Shown here piece after piece: positions 1-48,780 of a stretch of 64,000 nucleotides of DNA. Numbering within the stretch: the stretch's first letter is position 1; each line of letters begins with the position of its first letter. The notes under the pieces are model-generated. The model worked only from the letters and a program-made list of their open reading frames with translations, was not told the DNA's origin and made no database searches. Both the position numbers and the translations under genes were made by a program. Source of the stretch: Escherichia phage ALITA; sequence record PP359570; one strand, given 5' to 3'.

Positions 1-25
1 TAATAAATTAAATAATAAATATCTA

Positions 26-54
26 TTGACTTTAGATCTATCTGTATGTAGAGT
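26..54 (+). promoter_or_regulatory. sigma70-like promoter (-35 TTGACT 26-31, -10 TAGAGT 49-54)
   Basis: Hexamers with 17-bp spacer upstream of the prs-like gene; member of a recurring TTGACA-N17/18-TAnAnT motif family in this window. Confidence 0.5.
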
Positions 55-93
55 AGAGAACATAAAGTCCTAACTCAACTAAGGAGATAAACA

Positions 94-987
94 ATGAAAG
101 TTAGTATTCTACATGGTGTTGACTGTTATGTTACTGATGTAGACGTTAAAGTCTTTACATTCTCTGGTGGAGAACAACATGTTCAACTAGACACGAATCT
201 ATCAGGTTTCAATCATGCTACAGACAGAATCTTACTCTCTTTAGAAGTAAGATCTGCTAAAGACTTGATGACTTTGGTTATGACTAAGAATGCATTGGAC
301 AATATGCTATATCATAAACCATATTGTGTTGATTTACTCATGTTGTATGTGCCGTATGCACGACAAGACAGAGTGTGTGAGCCTGGGGAAGCATTCGGAG
401 TTAAAGCCTTTGCTTCTATAATTAATTCATTAAATTTCTCACGTGTTATCGTTGCTGATCCACATAGTGATGTTACTCCGGCAGTGTTTGACAGACTCTG
501 TGTAATACCTCAAGAAGAGATTGCTTACGAAACTTTAAAGTGGAAGTTACGTATGGAGAATTTTGCTCTTGTTAGTCCTGATGGTGGTGCTCTTAAGAAA
601 ATATTTAAATTATCTAAGAAAATGTCTTTAGATGTGTTCTGTGCAGAGAAGGTTAGAGATACTGCAACAGGTGCTATTGTTCGTACAGACATTTCTGTAC
701 AGGATTTCAATAAGCGTAACCTGATGATCGTAGATGATATCTGTGACGGCGGTAGAACTTTTATTGAATTGGCTAAAGTGCTACGTGCTCGTAACGCAGG
801 TAAGATTGAGTTATATGTTACACACGGTATCTTTTCTAAAGGTCTTAAAGAGTTAAGTGAGCACTTTGACTGCATTCATTCTCTTAATGTGTGGGAAGAT
901 AACATCCAAGAAGATTCCGGTGTTCTTGTTAAGAATCAGTCAGATTTGCAACAACAAATTGTATCTCCATACGTGTGGAATTTTTAA
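94..987 (+). CDS. ribose-phosphate pyrophosphokinase (Prs)-like phosphoribosyltransferase-fold enzyme; possible ADP-ribose pyrophosphokinase of an NAD+ reconstitution pathway
   Basis: 297-aa ORF, SD aaggag 81-86 then ATG 94; PRPP-binding loop MIVDDICDGGRTF near C-terminus and Prs-like N-terminal half; directly followed by NAMPT-like gene. Confidence 0.8.
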   Translation: MKVSILHGVDCYVTDVDVKVFTFSGGEQHVQLDTNLSGFNHATDRILLSLEVRSAKDLMTLVMTKNALDNMLYHKPYCVDLLMLYVPYARQDRVCEPGEAFGVKAFASIINSLNFSRVIVADPHSDVTPAVFDRLCVIPQEEIAYETLKWKLRMENFALVSPDGGALKKIFKLSKKMSLDVFCAEKVRDTATGAIVRTDISVQDFNKRNLMIVDDICDGGRTFIELAKVLRARNAGKIELYVTHGIFSKGLKELSEHFDCIHSLNVWEDNIQEDSGVLVKNQSDLQQQIVSPYVWNF

Positions 988-997
988 ATAATAAGTG

Positions 998-1026
998 TTG
1001 ACAATAGGGAGTATGCTTAGTAAGAT
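998..1026 (+). promoter_or_regulatory. sigma70-like promoter (-35 TTGACA 998-1003, -10 TAAGAT 1021-1026)
   Basis: Consensus -35 with 17-bp spacer upstream of NAMPT-like gene. Confidence 0.5.
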
Positions 1027-1058
1027 ACTCCCACACTAACAAACAAGGAGACATAACT

Positions 1059-2792
1059 ATGAATATTTTTGCACCTTTTGCTACTGATTGGTATAAACCT
1101 GGTCACAAGCAGATGTACAACCAAAATACAAAACTCATTTTCTCTAATTTAACTCCTCGTAATGATAAAAACTTTGCACACTATGCAGATCGTGAAGCAC
1201 GTGGTGTAATTGTTTTAGGTATTCGTCGAGCAGTTACTGATGCTCTTGTAACTATGTGGGATAGCTTCTTTAAAATGTCTCGTAGTGCAGCAGTAAATAA
1301 ATTTTATCGTATGTCTAAAAATGCATTAGGTGCTTCTGCTCCTTCTGCTGAATGTTGGGGAGAATTGCACGATTTAGGTTATCTTCCGCTGGAAGTTCGA
1401 TCTCTGCCAGAAGGTGTTTTGTGTCCTATTGGTGTTCCTGTGTTTACTGTGCATAATACTTTAGAAAAATTCTTTTGGTTAACTAACTATGTGGAAACAC
1501 TATTGTCAGATGAAACTTGGAAGACAATGACTAATGCTACAGCAGCTTTTCAGTATAAGCGTATTGCTATGGCATATGCGATGGCAACGTGTGATAATAT
1601 TGATCATGTTAACTTCCAGTGTCATGATTTTAGCCTACGTGGTTTAAGTAATATCGAAGATGGTTATAAGAGTGGTATCGCTCATTTGGCATCTTTCACA
1701 GGAACAGATAACATTCTGGCTATTGAGACTGTGCATGATTATTATGGTATTGATTATGATCAGTTTGTTGCAGGTTCTATTCCGGCAACAGAACATTCAG
1801 TAGCAACGACTAACATTGGAGCTATTGTTGAAGATCTGAAGAAACATTTCCCACATCTTAAAGATGATGTTGATGGGCTTCGTTATGTAGCAGAGAAAGA
1901 GTTTCTTCGCCGCTATATTGAAGAAATTGTTCCAGAAGGTTTTTGTTCATATGTAGCAGATTCTTATGACTACTGGGCTGTCTTGACTCGCATTCTGGTC
2001 GAGTTGAAAGATTCCATTATGTCACGAAATGGTCGTCTTGTTATTCGTCCAGATTCAGGAGATCCGGTTAAAGTTGTTGCAGGATACAATGTTGAATCTT
2101 TTGATAACTATGAAGACCTTTTAAATAATGGTATTGCTACAGCCACTGAAGTAGTTCATTTGGCTGATGTTAATAAGTATTACAATGTTCTTCAGGATTG
2201 CAGTGTTGCTGATTGTATTGATGAAACTTATGAGATTCCTTATTGTGAAGCAGTAGGTTCTATTCAAATCCTTTGGGAAGTGTTTGGTGGTACTATCAAC
2301 CGAAAAGGCTACAAGGTTCTTGATCAGCACATCGGTATGATTTATGGTGATTCTATTACTGTTGAACGAGAACACGAAATCTTACGCCGACTGAAGAAGA
2401 AAGGTTTTGCAGCTTCCAATATTGTATTTGGTGTTGGTAGTTATACTTATCAGTTCAATACACGAGATACTTTTGGTTTTGCTGTTAAAGCAACAGGTAG
2501 TATCATCGGTGAACACGAAATTTTGGTAAGTAAGGAGCCTAAAACTGATCCTGGTAAACGTTCTGCAAAAGGTTTTATTAAGGTTGTTAAGGATACAAAC
2601 GGTAAACTTTCTCTCGTGGATAATCTTTCTTTTAAAGATATTCAAGATGAAGACAATGAGTTAAAAGTTATCTTCAGGGATGGTACGGTTATTACACCAC
2701 AAGTAGAAGGACGTGATGAAACATTTACGGATATCCGCAATCGTGTTGATGTAGAGGTTCTTCGTACTATGGGAACCATCCAGGTTGACTAA
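1059..2792 (+). CDS. nicotinamide phosphoribosyltransferase (NAMPT/NadV)-like enzyme
   Basis: 577-aa ORF, SD aaggag 1045-1050; N-terminal TDWYKPGHKQMY resembles the NAMPT family N-terminus; tandem with Prs-like gene. Confidence 0.75.
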   Translation: MNIFAPFATDWYKPGHKQMYNQNTKLIFSNLTPRNDKNFAHYADREARGVIVLGIRRAVTDALVTMWDSFFKMSRSAAVNKFYRMSKNALGASAPSAECWGELHDLGYLPLEVRSLPEGVLCPIGVPVFTVHNTLEKFFWLTNYVETLLSDETWKTMTNATAAFQYKRIAMAYAMATCDNIDHVNFQCHDFSLRGLSNIEDGYKSGIAHLASFTGTDNILAIETVHDYYGIDYDQFVAGSIPATEHSVATTNIGAIVEDLKKHFPHLKDDVDGLRYVAEKEFLRRYIEEIVPEGFCSYVADSYDYWAVLTRILVELKDSIMSRNGRLVIRPDSGDPVKVVAGYNVESFDNYEDLLNNGIATATEVVHLADVNKYYNVLQDCSVADCIDETYEIPYCEAVGSIQILWEVFGGTINRKGYKVLDQHIGMIYGDSITVEREHEILRRLKKKGFAASNIVFGVGSYTYQFNTRDTFGFAVKATGSIIGEHEILVSKEPKTDPGKRSAKGFIKVVKDTNGKLSLVDNLSFKDIQDEDNELKVIFRDGTVITPQVEGRDETFTDIRNRVDVEVLRTMGTIQVD

Positions 2793-2863
2793 ATAAAAAC
2801 TTCGTGATAAGATTAAGGTAAGGAGAGCCTGCAACTGCCCTGGATGGGCTTCACGAAGGATTT

Positions 2864-3085
2864 ATGAAACAACATAATTTTTATTTTCGTTGCCGAGCCT
2901 GTAACAGACACTTGACTAATCATTCCCGTAGAGACAGGAATGGTAATATTCAAGAGTCGGATCTATGCTCGATTTGTACAAGTTTGGCATTCGACGACAG
3001 TCCCGAAAGGGTTTATCAACATCAAAGTGTAACTGATCTTCTTCTAAATTACACAGCACCAGAGGAGGAATTAGATTTCACATAA
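2864..3085 (+). CDS. hypothetical small protein with two CxxC pairs (zinc-ribbon-like)
   Basis: 73-aa ORF; CRACNRH...CSIC motif; weak SD. Confidence 0.4.
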   Translation: MKQHNFYFRCRACNRHLTNHSRRDRNGNIQESDLCSICTSLAFDDSPERVYQHQSVTDLLLNYTAPEEELDFT

Positions 3086-3098
3086 TTAAGGAAACAGT

Positions 3099-3209
3099 AT
3101 GTCTACAGAAATTATTTTTGGCTTATCTGTTTTTATTGCTATTGTATCTTTTGTATGCGGTTATACACTAGGTTACAGATCAAGAAAAAATATTGTAAAA
3201 ACTAGTTGA
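3099..3209 (+). CDS. small hydrophobic peptide (36 aa, single predicted transmembrane helix)
   Basis: ATG 3099 preceded by aagga SD; translation MSTEIIFGLSVFIAIVSFVCGYTLGYRSRKNIVKTS; below the 60-aa cutoff of the ORF track. Confidence 0.35.
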   Translation: MSTEIIFGLSVFIAIVSFVCGYTLGYRSRKNIVKTS

Positions 3210-3539: not shown

Positions 3540-3615
3540 GGTTCCATAGCTCACTGACGAGAGCGCACACCTCATAAGTGTCGAGGGCAGGGATTGTAAC
3601 CCTGGGGAACCACCA
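3540..3615 (+). tRNA. tRNA-Met/Ile2 (anticodon CAT)
   Basis: Cloverleaf: acceptor GGTTCCA/GGGAACC, D-stem GCTC/GAGC, anticodon loop CTCATAA, T-stem CAGGG/CCCTG with atypical T-loop ATTGTAA, 3' ACCA encoded. Confidence 0.75.
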
Positions 3616-3646
3616 TTTAAAAGGAGGTGCTATGCATCTCCTATAT

Positions 3647-3732
3647 GCAAGTGTGGTGGAATTGGTGATACACATTGTGCTTAAAACGCAACGCTTAAAT
3701 GCTTGAGGGTTCGAATCCCTCCACTTGCACCA
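3647..3732 (+). tRNA. tRNA-Leu (anticodon TAA), type II
   Basis: Acceptor GCAAGTG/CACTTGC, anticodon loop CTTAAAA, 13-nt variable arm, T-loop GGGTTCGAATCCC, CCA encoded. Confidence 0.8.
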
Positions 3733-3734
3733 AC

Positions 3735-3840
3735 GCCTAGTAGGGTATTTGGTAATTCCGAGGCCATCAAAGCCTGAAAAATATGTTAGACCGTTTTGTC
3801 TAACTAAATACGAAATATGGTTCGATTCCATAACTAGGCT
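3735..3840 (+). tRNA. atypical long tRNA-like gene (about 106 nt), candidate anticodon TCA (would read UGA); Sec/Ser-like architecture
   Basis: Perfect 7-bp acceptor GCCTAGT/ACTAGGC, 6-bp D-stem with 4-nt loop, anticodon arm AGGC-CATCAAA-GCCT, long variable hairpin GTTAGAC-CGTTTT-GTCTAAC, canonical T-arm TATGG-TTCGATT-CCATA; no encoded CCA. Confidence 0.4.
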
Positions 3841-3875
3841 CCCGATTTAAATAGTAATTTTTTAATAAAAATATC

Positions 3876-3904
3876 TTGACATTTACTTAGTTTTTTGTTA
3901 TAGT
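3876..3904 (+). promoter_or_regulatory. sigma70-like promoter (-35 TTGACA 3876-3881, -10 TATAGT 3899-3904)
   Basis: Consensus hexamers, 17-bp spacer, TG upstream of -10; precedes tRNA at 3916. Confidence 0.55.
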
Positions 3905-3915
3905 CATTATGAAAA

Positions 3916-3997
3916 CGGGGTGTATCTCACCTGACTTCTAATCAGGCGTTAACCGAGTAATTGGAGTATGCAGGTTCGAATCCTGTCACCCCGGCCA
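3916..3997 (+). tRNA. tRNA-Arg-like (anticodon TCT), atypical: no canonical D-arm, 23-nt extra region
   Basis: Perfect acceptor CGGGGTG/CACCCCG, anticodon arm CCTGA-CTTCTAA-TCAGG, T-arm GCAGG-TTCGAAT-CCTGT, GCCA 3' end; only 7 nt between acceptor and anticodon stem. Confidence 0.45.
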
Positions 3998-4015
3998 AAA
4001 AGTTTTAAAAACTAC

Positions 4016-4044
4016 TTGACAAGCAAGATAGTTTTATGTTAGAT
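4016..4044 (+). promoter_or_regulatory. sigma70-like promoter (-35 TTGACA 4016-4021, -10 TTAGAT 4039-4044)
   Basis: Consensus -35, 17-bp spacer; precedes tRNA-Ser. Confidence 0.5.
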
Positions 4045-4060
4045 TTAAAGTATGGTAACA

Positions 4061-4150
4061 GGAAGGTAGGGCGCAGCGGTGCGCAACCAGGTTTGAACCC
4101 TGGCCCATTGTAGCGATACGGTGATGGTTCGACTCCATTATCTTCCTCCA
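4061..4150 (+). tRNA. tRNA-Ser (anticodon TGA), type II
   Basis: Acceptor GGAAGGT/ATCTTCC, anticodon arm CCAGG-TTTGAAC-CCTGG, long variable arm, T-loop GGTTCGACTCC, CCA encoded. Confidence 0.75.
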
Positions 4151-4168
4151 AATTCGCTTAGGAGCTTT

Positions 4169-4321
4169 ATGAATTATAAAACTATTGGACAGGTTGTTAC
4201 CGGAGTTAAGATTGTAAATAATAAAGTTGTTTATGAGTATTCTAATCTTCAACAATCTGAAGATGGTAAGAATATTTGTATGGTAAAAGCAGAACAAAAA
4301 GATTCCGGTTGTTTTGAATAA
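4169..4321 (+). CDS. hypothetical small protein (50 aa)
   Basis: ATG 4169 after SD aggag 4160-4164, immediately downstream of tRNA-Ser; ORF-track ORF 4121..4321 starts inside the tRNA so the internal ATG is preferred. Confidence 0.4.
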   Translation: MNYKTIGQVVTGVKIVNNKVVYEYSNLQQSEDGKNICMVKAEQKDSGCFE

Positions 4322-4329
4322 TTAAAAAC

Positions 4330-4415
4330 GGTAGATTGGTGAAATGGTAGCCACAACAGTTTGCTAAACTGTCGTCGGAAACGGCGTGTAGGTTCAAGTC
4401 CTACATCTACCGCCA
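4330..4415 (+). tRNA. tRNA-Ser (anticodon GCT), type II
   Basis: Acceptor GGTAGAT/ATCTACC, anticodon arm ACAGT-TTGCTAA-ACTGT, variable arm, T-arm GTAGG-TTCAAGT-CCTAC, CCA encoded. Confidence 0.8.
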
Positions 4416-4541
4416 AGTTATCTTTAATGTAGCTTGTAATCTTACTTTAGCAGAGTAAATCTTCGGCAAGTGGCAGTAACCACTTTACCGATAGCCCATA
4501 GTCAAGTGCCGCAAACACTGGCTATTTTAAAGATAATTTAT

Positions 4542-4617
4542 ACATCGTTAGCTTAGTTGGTAGAGCAAGGGGCTTTTAACTCCAAGGTCGAAGGTTCGAA
4601 TCCTTCACGATGTACCA
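4542..4617 (+). tRNA. tRNA-Lys (anticodon TTT)
   Basis: Acceptor ACATCGT/ACGATGT, D-arm GCTT-AGTTGGTA-GAGC, anticodon loop CTTTTAA, T-arm GAAGG-TTCGAAT-CCTTC, CCA encoded. Confidence 0.8.
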
Positions 4618-4622
4618 AACAC

Positions 4623-4709
4623 GTAGGTATCGCATAGCGGCAATTGCTGGAGACTGTAAATCTCTTGCCCTTCGGGGCTTCGTTGGTTCGAGTCCAACTA
4701 CCTGCACCA
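4623..4709 (+). tRNA. tRNA-Tyr (anticodon GTA), type II
   Basis: Acceptor GTAGGTA/TACCTGC, anticodon arm GGAGA-CTGTAAA-TCTCT, variable arm TGCCCTTCGGGGCTTC, T-arm GTTGG-TTCGAGT-CCAAC, CCA encoded. Confidence 0.75.
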
Positions 4710-4716
4710 AATTAAA

Positions 4717-4801
4717 GATGGATTGGCCTAGTGGTTGGGCGACGGACTGTTAATCCGTGAACGAAAGTTCTAGCAAGGTTCAAATCCTTGATCCATCGCC
4801 A
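4717..4801 (+). tRNA. tRNA-Asn (anticodon GTT) with unusually long variable arm
   Basis: Acceptor GATGGAT/ATCCATC, anticodon arm ACGGA-CTGTTAA-TCCGT, variable hairpin GAAC-GAAA-GTTC, T-arm CAAGG-TTCAAAT-CCTTG, CCA encoded. Confidence 0.6.
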
Positions 4802-4805
4802 AATA

Positions 4806-4873
4806 GTGCTTGTAGAGTTAATAGAAACCTCTAGAATTTTCTAGAATTGTAGGTATCAAATCCTACCAAGCAA
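4806..4873 (+). pseudogene. tRNA-like remnant (acceptor and T-arm-like pairing, no anticodon arm, no CCA)
   Basis: GTGCTTG/CAAGCAA acceptor-like pairing and GTAGG-TATCAAAT-CCTAC hairpin; internal region contains palindrome TCTAGAATTTTCTAGA instead of an anticodon arm. Confidence 0.25.
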
Positions 4874-4880
4874 ATATTTT

Positions 4881-4955
4881 GCTCCTATCGTATAACGGCT
4901 ATTACGGTTGCCTTGTAAGCAACTTATCAGGGTTCGAGTCCTTGTGGGAGCACCA
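4881..4955 (+). tRNA. tRNA-Thr (anticodon TGT)
   Basis: Acceptor GCTCCTA/TGGGAGC, anticodon arm GTTGC-CTTGTAA-GCAAC, T-loop GGGTTCGAGTCC, CCA encoded. Confidence 0.75.
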
Positions 4956-4977
4956 ATTTAACTCTAAAGGAGTGTAT

Positions 4978-5301
4978 GTGACAGAAAAAGAGTTAGAGAA
5001 ATATTTTAATATCAATGTTTTCGATGGTTTTGATGATATTGAAGATGTTGAAAGATATTATGAAGTAGAGTTAGATAAGGATAACATTGTAATTCTTTCT
5101 GCCACTTATGATTGTGCATATTATGAAGGCGAATCTCACGTTTATTTCTATGATATGAAAACATCTTTGTTTTATGAAGTACACGCATATCATTGTTCTT
5201 GTTATGGCTTAGAAGGTCAGTGGGAACCTGAAGAAATAGGTGATTTGAGCTTTACGGTTGCATATCTAAACAGACGTGGTGCATCTACTATTTTAAAATA
5301 A
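4978..5301 (+). CDS. hypothetical protein (acidic, Cys/His-containing)
   Basis: ORF-track ORF 4879..5301 begins inside tRNA-Thr; in-frame GTG 4978 follows SD aaggag 4967-4972 and is the likely start. Confidence 0.5.
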   Translation: MTEKELEKYFNINVFDGFDDIEDVERYYEVELDKDNIVILSATYDCAYYEGESHVYFYDMKTSLFYEVHAYHCSCYGLEGQWEPEEIGDLSFTVAYLNRRGASTILK

Positions 5302-5315
5302 ATATTAAAAGCCTC

Positions 5316-5345
5316 TTGACAAAGGGGCTAATAATATGTTAGAGT
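5316..5345 (+). promoter_or_regulatory. sigma70-like promoter (-35 TTGACA 5316-5321, -10 TAGAGT 5340-5345)
   Basis: Consensus -35, 18-bp spacer; precedes tRNA-Gly. Confidence 0.5.
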
Positions 5346-5356
5346 AATATTGTTAA

Positions 5357-5431
5357 GCGGGTATAGTGTTAATGGTAGCATATGAGGTTTCCACCCTCCA
5401 GGTGCAGGTTCAAGTCCTGTTACTCGCTCCA
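5357..5431 (+). tRNA. tRNA-Gly (anticodon TCC)
   Basis: Acceptor GCGGGTA/TACTCGC, anticodon loop TTTCCAC, T-arm GCAGG-TTCAAGT-CCTGT, CCA encoded; resembles bacterial tRNA-Gly(UCC). Confidence 0.8.
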
Positions 5432-5530
5432 AGATTATTTAAATGGAATCGCTAGAGAAAATTTCTCTTTTCGCTCATGGTTTTCTCCTTCAAACTCTAG
5501 CGGTTCTTTTTAAGTGATTTTTAGTTTTAT

Positions 5531-5605
5531 TGGAGATTAGCCTAGTGGGAAGGCAACGGCCTTTGAAGTCGTGATGACTAGGTTCGATTCCTAGATCTCC
5601 AGCCA
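5531..5605 (+). tRNA. tRNA-Gln (anticodon TTG)
   Basis: 5' U1 with A72 (TGGAGAT/ATCTCCA) as in bacterial tRNA-Gln, anticodon arm ACGGC-CTTTGAA-GTCGT, T-arm CTAGG-TTCGATT-CCTAG, GCCA end. Confidence 0.8.
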
Positions 5606-5647
5606 ATTAATTGCATAGCATGAGTATTTCTCATTGGTTAAAAGGAG

Positions 5648-6013
5648 ATGCAAGTGAATTGTGAACATTGTGGTAGTGAGTTTACTTTGATAAAAGGTCA
5701 TGGTGGACAAAACAGATCATACTGTTACACTTGTATTCCAGAAGGTTTAGATAAACAAGTACGCACAAGATTACATCAAGAACTTAGAAGAGAGCGATCT
5801 CATAAGATGAAACTTGATTTAGGTTGCAAAGTGTGTGGTTATGCTAAATGTGCAGTAGCACTAGAATGGCATCACCCAGAGGACGATAAGAAACACGATC
5901 CATCTAATGCAATCAAAAGATCTTGGTCTGCTTACTTAGAAGAGACTGAAAAGTGTATCTTACTATGTGCCAATTGTCATAGAGAAGTACATGCTGGTCT
6001 TATACAGGTTTAA
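5648..6013 (+). CDS. HNH homing endonuclease (free-standing, inside tRNA array)
   Basis: 121-aa ORF; CxxC...CxxC zinc-binding pairs and HNH motif WHHPEDDKKHDP...LLCANCHREVH; alternative start GTG 5654 has better SD spacing. Confidence 0.85.
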   Translation: MQVNCEHCGSEFTLIKGHGGQNRSYCYTCIPEGLDKQVRTRLHQELRRERSHKMKLDLGCKVCGYAKCAVALEWHHPEDDKKHDPSNAIKRSWSAYLEETEKCILLCANCHREVHAGLIQV

Positions 6014-6014
6014 T

Positions 6015-6090
6015 CAGTGCGTAGCGCAGTTGGTAGCGTGGGAGCCTTGGACGCTTCAGGTCGCAGGTTCGAGTCCTGCCGCACTGACCA
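6015..6090 (+). tRNA. tRNA-Pro (anticodon TGG)
   Basis: Perfect acceptor CAGTGCG/CGCACTG, anticodon arm GGAGC-CTTGGAC-GCTTC, T-arm GCAGG-TTCGAGT-CCTGC, CCA encoded; starts 2 nt after HNH stop. Confidence 0.8.
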
Positions 6091-6095
6091 AATTT

Positions 6096-6170
6096 GCAGA
6101 GATAGCTGAGACGGATTAGTGCTACCCTGAAAAGGTAGAAAGGATGGATCGTTACCATCTCTCTGCACCA
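6096..6170 (+). tRNA. tRNA-Phe (anticodon GAA)
   Basis: Acceptor GCAGAGA/TCTCTGC, anticodon arm CTACC-CTGAAAA-GGTAG, T-arm GATGG-ATCGTTA-CCATC (non-canonical T-loop), CCA encoded. Confidence 0.7.
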
Positions 6171-6247
6171 GATAATACCATCCAAGGAGAATACTTGGTT
6201 AACTGTCAATAGCACATTGAGGCTTCTTACAGTGGTGTACTTATTAT

Positions 6248-6332
6248 GGCTAAGTGGTGGAATGGTATACACGATACGCTTAGAACGTATTGCCCCAAGG
6301 GATTGTGAGTTCGAGTCTCACCTTAGCTACCA
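6248..6332 (+). tRNA. tRNA-Leu (anticodon TAG), type II
   Basis: Acceptor GGCTAAG/CTTAGCT, anticodon arm ATACG-CTTAGAA-CGTAT, variable hairpin CCC-CAA-GGG, T-arm GTGAG-TTCGAGT-CTCAC, CCA encoded. Confidence 0.75.
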
Positions 6333-6347
6333 AATTATTACAGGTTT

Positions 6348-6426
6348 CGCGGGATAGAGGAGTCTGGTCGTCCTCGCCAGTTTCATATGCTGGAGATCGT
6401 AGGTTCAAATCCTACTCCCGTTACCA
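6348..6426 (+). tRNA. tRNA-Met/Ile2 (anticodon CAT), second copy
   Basis: Acceptor CGCGGGA/TCCCGTT (terminal mismatch), D-arm GAGG/CCTC, anticodon arm CCAGT-TTCATAT-GCTGG, T-arm GTAGG-TTCAAAT-CCTAC, CCA encoded. Confidence 0.6.
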
Positions 6427-6470
6427 ATAAATACCTCCCTTCTGGTGTAATGATTAAATTACATTGACAC

Positions 6471-48186: not shown

Positions 48187-48780
48187 TTAAATTTTAAATT
48201 CTTCACTGTTAAATGAATCCAGTGTACGTACTTCTGGTTCTTTGGGAATGAAAACATCTTTTACAAAGCGGAACATAGGGAAACGTTCTGCCATTTTACG
48301 GACGTGTGCTTCTTTACCTGTGTATCGGTGATTAATAGTACAAATATTAGTTTTCAGTGCAAATTCAAAATCTGGATGATATACATAATTTTGACCGTCC
48401 CAGTAACACAGGCAAATAGCTACATCAAAGTTCCATACGATTTCACTGCGTACACCTTCTTCCATGATCATAAAGTTAAACTTAAGATCTTTATAGTATG
48501 CTTCAAATACCCATTTCAAATGTGGTAGTTCGGCATAAGTGTGTTCTGTTTGCTTAGTAAGTTGTTTAACATTACGTGCACCAACACCCAACATCAAAAA
48601 TTTCTCTACTAATACGAGTGTATTGTGGTTAGGCATACGCAAGTAAATGTCAATATCTTGCGCAGGTTTCTCTAATCGCCAGTCACGTACAGCGCCGCCA
48701 GCTACAATTGCAAACGGATCTACCAGTTGGCACATACGTAATACTTCTAAAGCTCGTACTTTTTGATCTTCAATATTCAT
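48187..48780 (-). CDS. minimal nucleotidyltransferase of the CCA-adding enzyme / poly(A) polymerase head-domain family
   Basis: 197-aa ORF; motif IVAGGAVRDWRLEKPAQDIDIYL matches the GGxVRD...DxD signature of class II tRNA nucleotidyltransferases. Confidence 0.55.
   Translation of the reverse strand: MNIEDQKVRALEVLRMCQLVDPFAIVAGGAVRDWRLEKPAQDIDIYLRMPNHNTLVLVEKFLMLGVGARNVKQLTKQTEHTYAELPHLKWVFEAYYKDLKFNFMIMEEGVRSEIVWNFDVAICLCYWDGQNYVYHPDFEFALKTNICTINHRYTGKEAHVRKMAERFPMFRFVKDVFIPKEPEVRTLDSFNSEEFKI

Follow-up and report, generated by a model that had tools for sequence, protein, structure and literature searches.

A tandem gene pair of a phi92-like Escherichia phage is predicted to encode the two enzymes of NAD+ reconstitution pathway 1

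[quoted passage not shown] A host defense system (SIR2, TIR, SEFIR and similar) would sense infection and cleave NAD+ to ADP-ribose and nicotinamide; Adps would then transfer the beta-gamma pyrophosphate of ATP to the 1'' position of the terminal ribose of ADP-ribose to give ADPR-pyrophosphate (ADPR + ATP -> ADPR-PP + AMP), and Namat would combine this product with nicotinamide (ADPR-PP + nicotinamide -> NAD+ + PPi), so that NAD+ would be regenerated directly and the phage could replicate. We infer this chemistry and the anti-defense phenotype from the homologues in phages Bas63, SPbetaL1, FADO and ICP1. The pair is clearly a copy of an already described pathway, so it is real and not new; our literature search found no paper that joins NARP1 with Justusliebigvirus or phi92.

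Both genes lie on the + strand, separated by a spacer of 71 nt. The first ORF (adps; positions 94–987, ATG start, TAA stop) encodes 297 amino acids and the second (namat; 1059–2792) encodes 577; each is preceded by a ribosome-binding site AAGGAG read from the sequence (81–86, 7 nt upstream of the ATG at 94, and 1045–1050, 8 nt upstream of the ATG at 1059; both + strand). The preliminary description had called them tandem Prs-like and NAMPT-like genes, and the family profiles agree: the adps product matches PF00156, PF14572 and phrog_619 (E 5e-91) and narrowly passes TIGR01251, a broad Prs subfamily model (118.8 bits; cut-off 113), and the namat product matches PF04095 (E 6e-38), phrog_448 (E 7e-188) and NF006629 (461 bits; cut-off 405). 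In most database records, the first gene carries the annotation Prs and the second that of a nicotinate or nicotinamide phosphoribosyltransferase.

The assignment of the first protein to Adps is supported by a neighbor-joining tree (500 bootstraps, as for the second protein, vide infra) of 15 Adps-type sequences and three Prs (E. coli, B. subtilis and human PRPS1). The two groups are split with 100% bootstrap support; the adps product is found on the Adps side, where it nests among the validated Adps of Bas63, ICP1, SPbetaL1 and FADO and shares a clade with that of ICP1 (77% support; 37% identity). Profiles for Adps, Prs, Namat and Nampt were built from validated proteins only; with these, the window Adps reaches 202 bits for Adps and 77 for Prs (~2.6-fold), and true Prs reach 80–95 bits for Adps; pairwise scores are 136 bits versus Bas63 Adps and 73 versus E. 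coli Prs. The equivalog-level Prs models of NCBIfam all fall far under their cut-offs (e.g., NF002095, 98 vs 296; NF002844, 65 vs 438).

The active-site residues are those expected for Adps. The enzyme from Vibrio phage ICP1, for which crystal and cryo-EM structures are available (PMC13586617), defines a signature that consists of a hairpin Lys with a catalytic role, the acceptor residues R87, H121, D161, D212, D213 and D216, a remodeled PP loop and the loss of alpha11-alpha12. In the alignment, the catalytic beta-hairpin of the window Adps is E-K186-V-R-D-T-A-T-G-A-I (646–678, + strand), with K186 equivalent to K185 of ICP1 and K162 of SPbetaL1; the form K-x-R-[DN]-x-x-T-G is common to all 15 Adps-type sequences, in contrast to K-[RE]-R-[PK] in the three Prs. 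The loop MIVDDICDGGRTF, reported earlier as a PRPP-binding loop, is indeed present at residues 211–223 of the 297-residue ORF (nt 724–762); the part that aligns as the PP loop or acceptor loop, D214-D215-I-C-D218-G-G-R-T-F223 (733–762, + strand), keeps D212, D213, D216 and F221 of ICP1 as well as its C-D-G form, and the Prs have D-T-x-G-T-[LI]. Altogether, F23, R90, H124, D163, K186, D214, D215, D218 and F223 correspond to the ICP1 contacts F18, R87, H121, D161, K185, D212, D213, D216 and F221. Two adenine contacts of ICP1, F92 and F223, are changed (to C95 and E225); the validated Bas63 Adps likewise departs from ICP1 at both (M and E, respectively).

The class I Prs (E. coli, B. subtilis and human PRPS1) share with the window Adps the two-domain PRTase fold, the Y-A-R-Q-D-R motif, the catalytic Lys and the D-D acceptor dyad; however, their identity to it is 21–24%, and the alignment shows that it lacks their N-terminal helix, their C-terminal alpha11-alpha12 module and their basic regulatory loop, has DPHS in place of DLHA, and has one extra residue and a T-G pair in the hairpin. 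The comparators for B. subtilis Prs, human PRPS1 and human NAMPT were compared with PDB chains: those for NAMPT (2GVG_A) and B. subtilis Prs (1DKR_A) are identical at every residue, and that for PRPS1 was checked at the level of score (full-length top match 8DBC_A, 704 bits).

The second protein gives the same picture. In a tree of 10 Adps-associated Namat and eight Nampt-type sequences, the two groups are again split with 100% bootstrap support, and the namat product is on the Namat side, nested among validated members. Its profile scores are 530 bits for Namat and 240 for Nampt (~2.2-fold); pairwise, it scores 398 bits versus Bas63 Namat and 381 versus SPbetaL1 Namat, and its match to the validated KVP40 Nampt is in two pieces (134 + 85 bits). 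Its top matches among solved structures are those of SPbetaL1 Namat (9W5X/9W5W, 397 bits), and human NAMPT scores 167; the third-best match, 9KE8/9KEO (339 bits), was traced to no paper and is left out of the argument.

Selectivity for ADPR-PP follows a published sequence-structure rule (PMC12774641) that involves a selectivity-clamp helix (SCH) and a selectivity-clamp loop (SCL). The SCH motif of the window Namat, G460-S-Y462-T-Y-Q-F466-N-T-R-D470 (2436–2468, + strand), exactly matches the published ADPR-PP selectivity motif; the corresponding segment begins with G-G-G-L-L-Q in seven of the eight Nampt-type sequences and with G-G-K-L-V-H in the eighth (Yen9-03). The SCL, N35-D-K37-N-F39-A-H-Y-A-D-R-E-A-R48 (1161–1202, + strand), is longer than that in the phage Nampt-type proteins aligned (S-R-G-G-K-F). 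By the SCL rule, position 3 holds Arg, Lys or Tyr, and with Lys or Tyr there the stacking falls to position 4; K37 fits at position 3, and N38 at position 4 is non-aromatic and is followed by F39. The catalytic histidine aligned with H247 of human NAMPT is H246 (1794–1796, + strand; in A-T-E-H-S), and every residue that serves catalysis or contacts NMN in SPbetaL1 Namat is kept (D10, Y12, F191, R194, D217, R330, D332, G430, D431, R469 and D470). Two insertions (approximately residues 255–277 and 343–395) are missing from the solved SPbetaL1 enzyme; these, the non-aromatic N38, the two altered adenine contacts of Adps and the narrow TIGR01251 pass are points against the NARP1 assignment.

Because sequence-structure rules have now been published for both Namat (PMC12774641) and Adps (PMC13586617), the chemistry has become readable from sequence. 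The preliminary description had named two options, one of them NAD+ reconstitution, and held that sequence alone could not tell which applies; trees, profiles and signature motifs favor reconstitution and group both proteins with NARP1, and the phylogenetic check that it proposed puts both with validated Adps and Namat.

One of the closest known systems, with the same host species, is NARP1 of Escherichia phage Bas63 (JohannRWettstein, genes 79–80), which was validated in vivo (bioRxiv 10.1101/2024.02.11.579819); a ~20-fold drop in plaque counts was seen for Bas63 on SIR2-HerA. The two systems share the order adps -> namat, similar protein sizes (293 and 593 residues in Bas63; 297 and 577 in the window), the DDICDGGRTF loop, the type of SCH motif, the Lys at SCL position 3 and a variable insertion in Namat after RPDSGDP. 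However, Bas63 is a Felixounavirus, the pairwise identities are only 35% (Adps) and 40% (Namat), and its SCL has K-W where the window has K-N-F; also, 45 nt separate its genes, which are part of a long series of genes on one strand, whereas the window pair opens a transcription unit at a divergent junction with a promoter-like site for each gene. The system of Bacillus phage SPbetaL1 (Adps WIT26982; Namat WIT26983) resembles that in the window in its NAD+-contact residues (kept or conservatively replaced), its SCH (GSFTYQYNTRD there, GSYTYQFNTRD here) and its catalytic Lys in Adps; it differs in a shorter Namat (491 residues, without the insertions of the window protein), an Arg at SCL position 3, an Adps PP loop of the S-F-G-G-T-F rather than the D-G-G-R-T-F type, and its setting in a temperate phage of a Gram-positive host. 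The ICP1 Namat also is without the insertion. The Nampt (NadV) of KVP40 NARP2 and human NAMPT share with the window Namat the fold and the catalytic core (D, Y, F, R, D, H, R, D, G-D, R-D), but their alignment identity to it is ~30–32%, and the G-S-aromatic-T-aromatic-Q-aromatic of Namat corresponds to G-G-G-L-L-Q in them; KVP40 has a short loop at the place of the SCL, and the partner enzyme in NARP2 is Nmnat instead of Adps.

The pairing and the sequences of the two genes are conserved. The order adps -> namat is kept in all seven diverse phages compared and recurs in a phage from metagenomic data that has an Adps of 66% identity. The first 3 kb of the window are 100% identical to phage inny, and the inny proteins MN850601_00081 and MN850601_00082 are identical to the adps and namat products, respectively; Osterman et al. 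(bioRxiv 10.1101/2024.02.11.579819) list both in their Supplementary Tables 1 and 2, the former as an Adps homologue with 'Namat within 10 genes: Yes' and the latter as an 'Adps-associated' Namat homologue. Compared with phage PaulScherrer (Bas60 of the BASEL collection), adps has 13 synonymous and no nonsynonymous codon differences and namat has 16 and five; compared with phage alia, the numbers are six and none for adps and eight and one for namat. Both genes are under purifying selection. The spacer is identical in alia, and one base is changed in PaulScherrer. As a separate observation, sister genomes of the phi92-like phage encode a SIR2-family protein.

The preliminary description had also given each gene its own sigma70-like promoter, and promoter-like sites are present at both places: TTGACT-17 nt-TAGAGT upstream of adps (26–54, + strand; motif scan) and TTGACA-17 nt-TAAGAT in the spacer (998–1026, + strand; 10 of 12 consensus positions). 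A generic promoter scan of the window gave no enrichment (17 sites vs 12.4 ± 4.3 in shuffles); a stricter motif, composed only after the matches from the generic scan were known, gave 16 sites versus 2.9 ± 1.8 expected, and seven of these 16, including that at 26–54, are + strand sites in the first 5.4 kb. Because of this excess with the stricter motif, the sites are real as a sequence pattern; as promoters they are putative.

The separate signals for namat bear on the possibility that the NARP1 pair has a dual use, with Namat, expressed from its own promoter, also using host PRPP for salvage in the manner of a Nampt and raising NAD+ even in hosts that have no defense system. We regard this as improbable. 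The site at 998–1026, the separate ribosome-binding site, the overlapping or abutting adps and namat genes of other phages (unlike those in the window) and the PRPP-dependent activity of Namat that persists in vitro (PMC12774641) would be consistent with it; however, the promoter is only putative, the NARP1-specific metabolites of Bas63 were found only when a defense system was present (bioRxiv 10.1101/2024.02.11.579819), and NMN would need host enzymes because the annotation of a sister genome includes no NMN adenylyltransferase. There is likewise only a slim chance that the phi92-like module goes beyond a copy of NARP1, perhaps by recycling ADP-ribose and nicotinamide from an NAD+-consuming enzyme of the phage itself or by using a modified ADP-ribose donor; this idea arises from the separate promoter-like sites, the longer K-N-F clamp loop, the genus-specific Namat insertions and the SIR2-family protein of the sister genomes.

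Classical salvage, in which a true Prs makes PRPP, a true Nampt/NadV makes NMN and host NadR/NadD adenylate NMN to NAD+, is what most database records imply, and the passing scores with TIGR01251 and NF006629 and the complete set of Nampt catalytic residues in the window Namat agree with it. We nevertheless consider it very improbable: neither protein belongs to the Prs or the Nampt clade, their scores on the Adps and Namat profiles are more than twice those on the Prs and Nampt profiles, the window Adps fails the Prs equivalog models and is without the Prs regulatory modules, and the window Namat has the ADPR-PP clamp motif that is missing from Nampt-type sequences. In the NARP1 paper (bioRxiv 10.1101/2024.02.11.579819), purified SPbetaL1 Adps gave no product in an assay of PRPP synthesis from ribose-5-phosphate and the authors ruled out NMN synthesis by the pair; according to a figure legend there, the Bas63 infection was repeated in a host lacking pncC and nadR. 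Some salvage activity may persist because Namat enzymes retain PRPP-dependent NMN synthesis in vitro (PMC12774641). The 'classical NAD+ salvage' arrangement named in the preliminary description reflects the older annotation; for this clade, the NARP1 paper has overturned it. Because database records still carry the Prs and nicotinate/nicotinamide phosphoribosyltransferase labels, the practical value of assigning the pair to NARP1 is a corrected annotation and not a discovery.

An extended or alternative pathway, that is, NARP1-AP (with a Macro-domain ADPR-1''-phosphate phosphatase, Adpp), NARP2 (Nampt and Nmnat) or NARP3 (PnuC and NadR), is scarcely credible even though related phages do have such variants, as in Vibrio phage BBMuffin, where a Macro-domain ORF separates adps from namat, for the 71-nt spacer here is too small for a Macro domain and none occurs in the ten neighboring ORFs scanned (against NARP1-AP), the window enzyme is outside the Nampt clade (against NARP2), and, in an annotation-level check of the whole alia genome, no Nmnat (against NARP2), PnuC or NadR (against NARP3) or Macro product is annotated. 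The lone 'nucleotidyltransferase' (197 residues; 48187–48780) was considered as a hidden NMN adenylyltransferase and discarded; it has no Nmnat match and gives only a weak match to the PolyA_pol head (polymerase-beta-type).

With no Macro-domain phosphatase nearby and no Nmnat, PnuC or NadR annotated in the sister genome, the window system reads as a plain two-gene NARP1. NARP1 is a widespread phage counter-defense that defeats many NAD+-depleting immune systems, and it occurs in 859 sequenced phage genomes (4.3% of the set; bioRxiv 10.1101/2024.02.11.579819). Its predicted presence in phi92-like therapeutic coliphages should aid the prediction of host range on strains with SIR2, TIR, SEFIR and DSR systems; the aRES systems are beyond the reach of plain NARP1, so phi92-like phages are predicted to remain sensitive to aRES.

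The gene pair at the start of the window is a real but already catalogued instance of NARP1. Its two ORFs, on the same strand at 94..987 (297 aa) and 1059..2792 (577 aa), lie exactly where the preliminary description had placed them; according to Pfam, NCBIfam and PHROGs, the first, which carries the loop MIVDDICDGGRTF at residues 211-223, belongs to the phosphoribosyltransferase/ribose-phosphate pyrophosphokinase superfamily, and the second is a member of the NAPRTase/NAMPT family. Osterman et al. (bioRxiv 10.1101/2024.02.11.579819) established that the annotation 'Prs + NadV' is wrong for such pairs: Adps pyrophosphorylates ADP-ribose, Namat converts ADPR-pyrophosphate and nicotinamide to NAD+, and together they allow phages to escape NAD+-depleting defence systems. 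They validated NARP1 by genetics and metabolomics in Bas63 and FADO and by biochemistry with the SPbetaL1 proteins. Their Supplementary Table 1 includes MN850601_00081, identical in sequence to the window's first protein, with the entry 'Namat within 10 genes: Yes', and Supplementary Table 2 includes MN850601_00082 as 'Adps-associated'. Later work provided a structure of Namat, together with a rule for recognising ADPR-PP specificity from sequence (PMC12774641), and structures of ICP1 Adps (PMC13586617), and described both a form of NARP1 in which a Macro-domain phosphatase deals with what the aRES system produces and an unrelated pathway, NARP3.

The preliminary description offered two readings of the pair, NAD+ salvage by Prs and NAMPT or NAD+ reconstitution by Adps and Namat; judged by trees, profiles and residues, the second appears to be correct. 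The second protein scores 398 bits with the Bas63 Namat and 381 with the SPbetaL1 Namat; the validated KVP40 Nampt matches it with 134 + 85 bits. Among solved structures, SPbetaL1 Namat ranks best (9W5X/9W5W, 397 bits; human NAMPT, 167). In a sampled tblastn ranking of a phage collection, full-length matches extend down to ~35% identity (E ~1e-90), and after a gap come T4-like and jumbo phages, with ~26% identity and E ~1e-33 or weaker. Neighbour-joining of 18 sequences separates 10 Adps-associated from 8 Nampt-type proteins (KVP40 and human among them) with 100% bootstrap, and the protein scores 530 bits with a Namat profile built from two validated Namats only vs 240 with a Nampt profile built from KVP40 and human. 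The catalytic core is intact, including H246, and G460-S-Y-T-Y-Q-F-N-T-R-D470 matches the published Namat signature exactly; in Nampt-type proteins this segment begins G-G-G-L-L-Q (7/8). In the clamp loop, the diagnostic third position is Lys, followed by Asn-Phe, with no directly adjacent aromatic residue.

The first protein likewise departs from Prs: it scores 136 bits with the Bas63 Adps and 73 with E. coli Prs, and 202 bits with a validated-Adps profile vs 77 with a Prs profile. All NCBIfam Prs equivalog models fall far under cut-off, and the only NCBIfam Prs model that it passes, narrowly, is the broad subfamily TIGR01251. The tree splits three bona fide Prs from the 15 Adps-type sequences with 100% support. 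Its branch for the window protein is placed between Bas63 Adps, which is validated, and the Adps of SPbetaL1 and FADO, and shares a clade (77% support) with ICP1 Adps, whose structure is characterised. Nine active-site residues of ICP1 Adps (F18, R87, H121, D161, K185, D212, D213, D216 and F221) have identical counterparts in it. All aligned Adps-type sequences, this one included, are distinguished from Prs by a K-x-R-D-x-x-T-G hairpin, DPHS instead of DLHA, a PP loop ending in Phe and a non-basic regulatory loop, and all lack the N-terminal helix and the C-terminal alpha11-alpha12 module of Prs. The PP loop D-G-G-R-T-F is shared with Bas63 and other Gram-negative phages, whereas in phages of Bacillus, Staphylococcus and Listeria it reads S-[FY]-G-G-T-F.

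No Macro-domain gene was found between or beside adps and namat, and no Nmnat, PnuC or NadR is annotated in the whole genome of the sister phage alia; by its sequence, the pair is a plain two-gene NARP1. This differs from Vibrio phage BBMuffin, in which a Macro-domain ORF (gp178; 1935-2411 of record region L009) between adps and namat makes a three-gene NARP1-AP. The local peculiarities, that is, the separate promoter-like sites, the longer clamp loop and the Namat insertions, give no reason to expect a different chemistry; the Bas63 Namat has a larger insertion than the window's and is still functional in vivo.

Compared with SPbetaL1 Namat, for which a structure is solved, the window Namat has two variable insertions, at residues ~255-277 and 343-395 (window 1821-1889 and 2085-2243), the second located after the RPDSGDP strand. 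The Namats of Bas63, SCUT-S2, 0507-KN2-1, P100 and BBMuffin each have a version of the second that differs in length and sequence; the Namats of ICP1, Staphylococcus phage K and mycobacteriophages lack it, as do the Nampt-type proteins shown in the alignment (KVP40, Matisse and human).

Both genes have AAGGAG 7-8 nt 5' of the ATG. The sigma70-like promoter proposed for each gene is borne out as a sequence match, TTGACT-17-TAGAGT at 26-54 and TTGACA-17-TAAGAT at 998-1026. A generic promoter scan showed no enrichment over shuffles; a stricter motif, composed after the hits were known, has 16 sites in 64 kb vs 2.9 +/- 1.8 expected, and 7/16 fall on the + strand within 5.4 kb of the window start, before the gene pair and the ensuing tRNA genes. 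At a divergent junction, the pair starts a rightward transcription unit with 15 tRNA genes downstream.

Over bases 1-3000, the window has 100% identity with Escherichia phage inny (MN850601.1), which encodes identical versions of both proteins, and 98.5-99.5% identity with ~50 other phi92-like phages (Justusliebigvirus); other parts of the window match inny with 99.3% identity, plus indels, so that the window derives from inny or, at any rate, a very close relative. Synonymous:nonsynonymous codon differences are 13:0 (PaulScherrer) and 6:0 (alia) for adps, and 16:5 and 8:1, respectively, for namat. The order adps-namat is kept in 7/7 diverse phages examined, and also on a 157-kb metagenomic phage contig (Adps 66% identical) on which the upstream genes are syntenic too.

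Just 5' of the window start, on the opposite strand, the inny record (region L002, 3297-6046) contains an RNA-repair-like cluster: a T4 Rnl1-type RNA ligase, an AAA_33 kinase-like ATPase, a weak metallophosphoesterase match and a protein with a cREC_REC 'cyclic-phosphate processing' domain. Genes for RNA ligase or polynucleotide kinase are found near NARP1 in SCUT-S2, BBMuffin, Miley16 and Bas63 as well, which suggests a clustering of counter-defence functions. In alia, outside the window, gp165 (region L022, 1319-2131) is a SIR2-family protein (PF02146, E 2e-22), that is, an NAD+-consuming type of enzyme alongside NARP1, and gp113 (region L021, 31674-31889) is annotated 'phosphoribosylpyrophosphate synthetase'; at 71 aa it is too short for the enzyme, so the annotation is probably a carry-over.

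In a bacterium, Geminocystis sp. NIES-3708, the chromosome (region L024, 5001-8191) has three genes in succession: an Adps-like gene with 45% identity to the window's Adps, a Namat-like gene that contains the clamp motif in full (GSYTYQYVTRD), and a gene whose domains are Nudix and an NrtR winged helix. NrtR is a regulator that responds to ADP-ribose. This arrangement suggests a chromosomal ADPR-recycling operon; NrtR is not mentioned in the Namat structure paper (PMC12774641), and Osterman et al. (bioRxiv 10.1101/2024.02.11.579819) hint at housekeeping roles of this sort.

Immediately 3' of namat, a + strand ORF of 73 aa (2864-3085), preceded by TTGACT-17-TAAGAT at 2785-2813, has two CxxC pairs and is zinc-ribbon-like, with a weak RecR_ZnF match; it is annotated in PaulScherrer and unannotated in inny. 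The tRNA cluster (3540-6648) is interspersed with small ORFs, with sigma70-like matches at 3206, 3876, 4016 and 5316. Between its tRNA-Gln and tRNA-Pro genes, a Cys-rich + strand ORF of 121 aa (5648-6013) with the C-terminal HNH-like motif CANCHREVH looks like a mobile homing-endonuclease insertion; from tRNA spacing, it is missing from inny, PaulScherrer and alia, and VEcB contains the stretch, with an HNH endonuclease among the record features under the match. On the - strand, a 197-aa nucleotidyltransferase (48187-48780; phrog_1614) has no Nmnat match and a weak match to PolyA_pol-head, a family that includes CCA-adding enzymes; its role may possibly be tied to the phage tRNA set.
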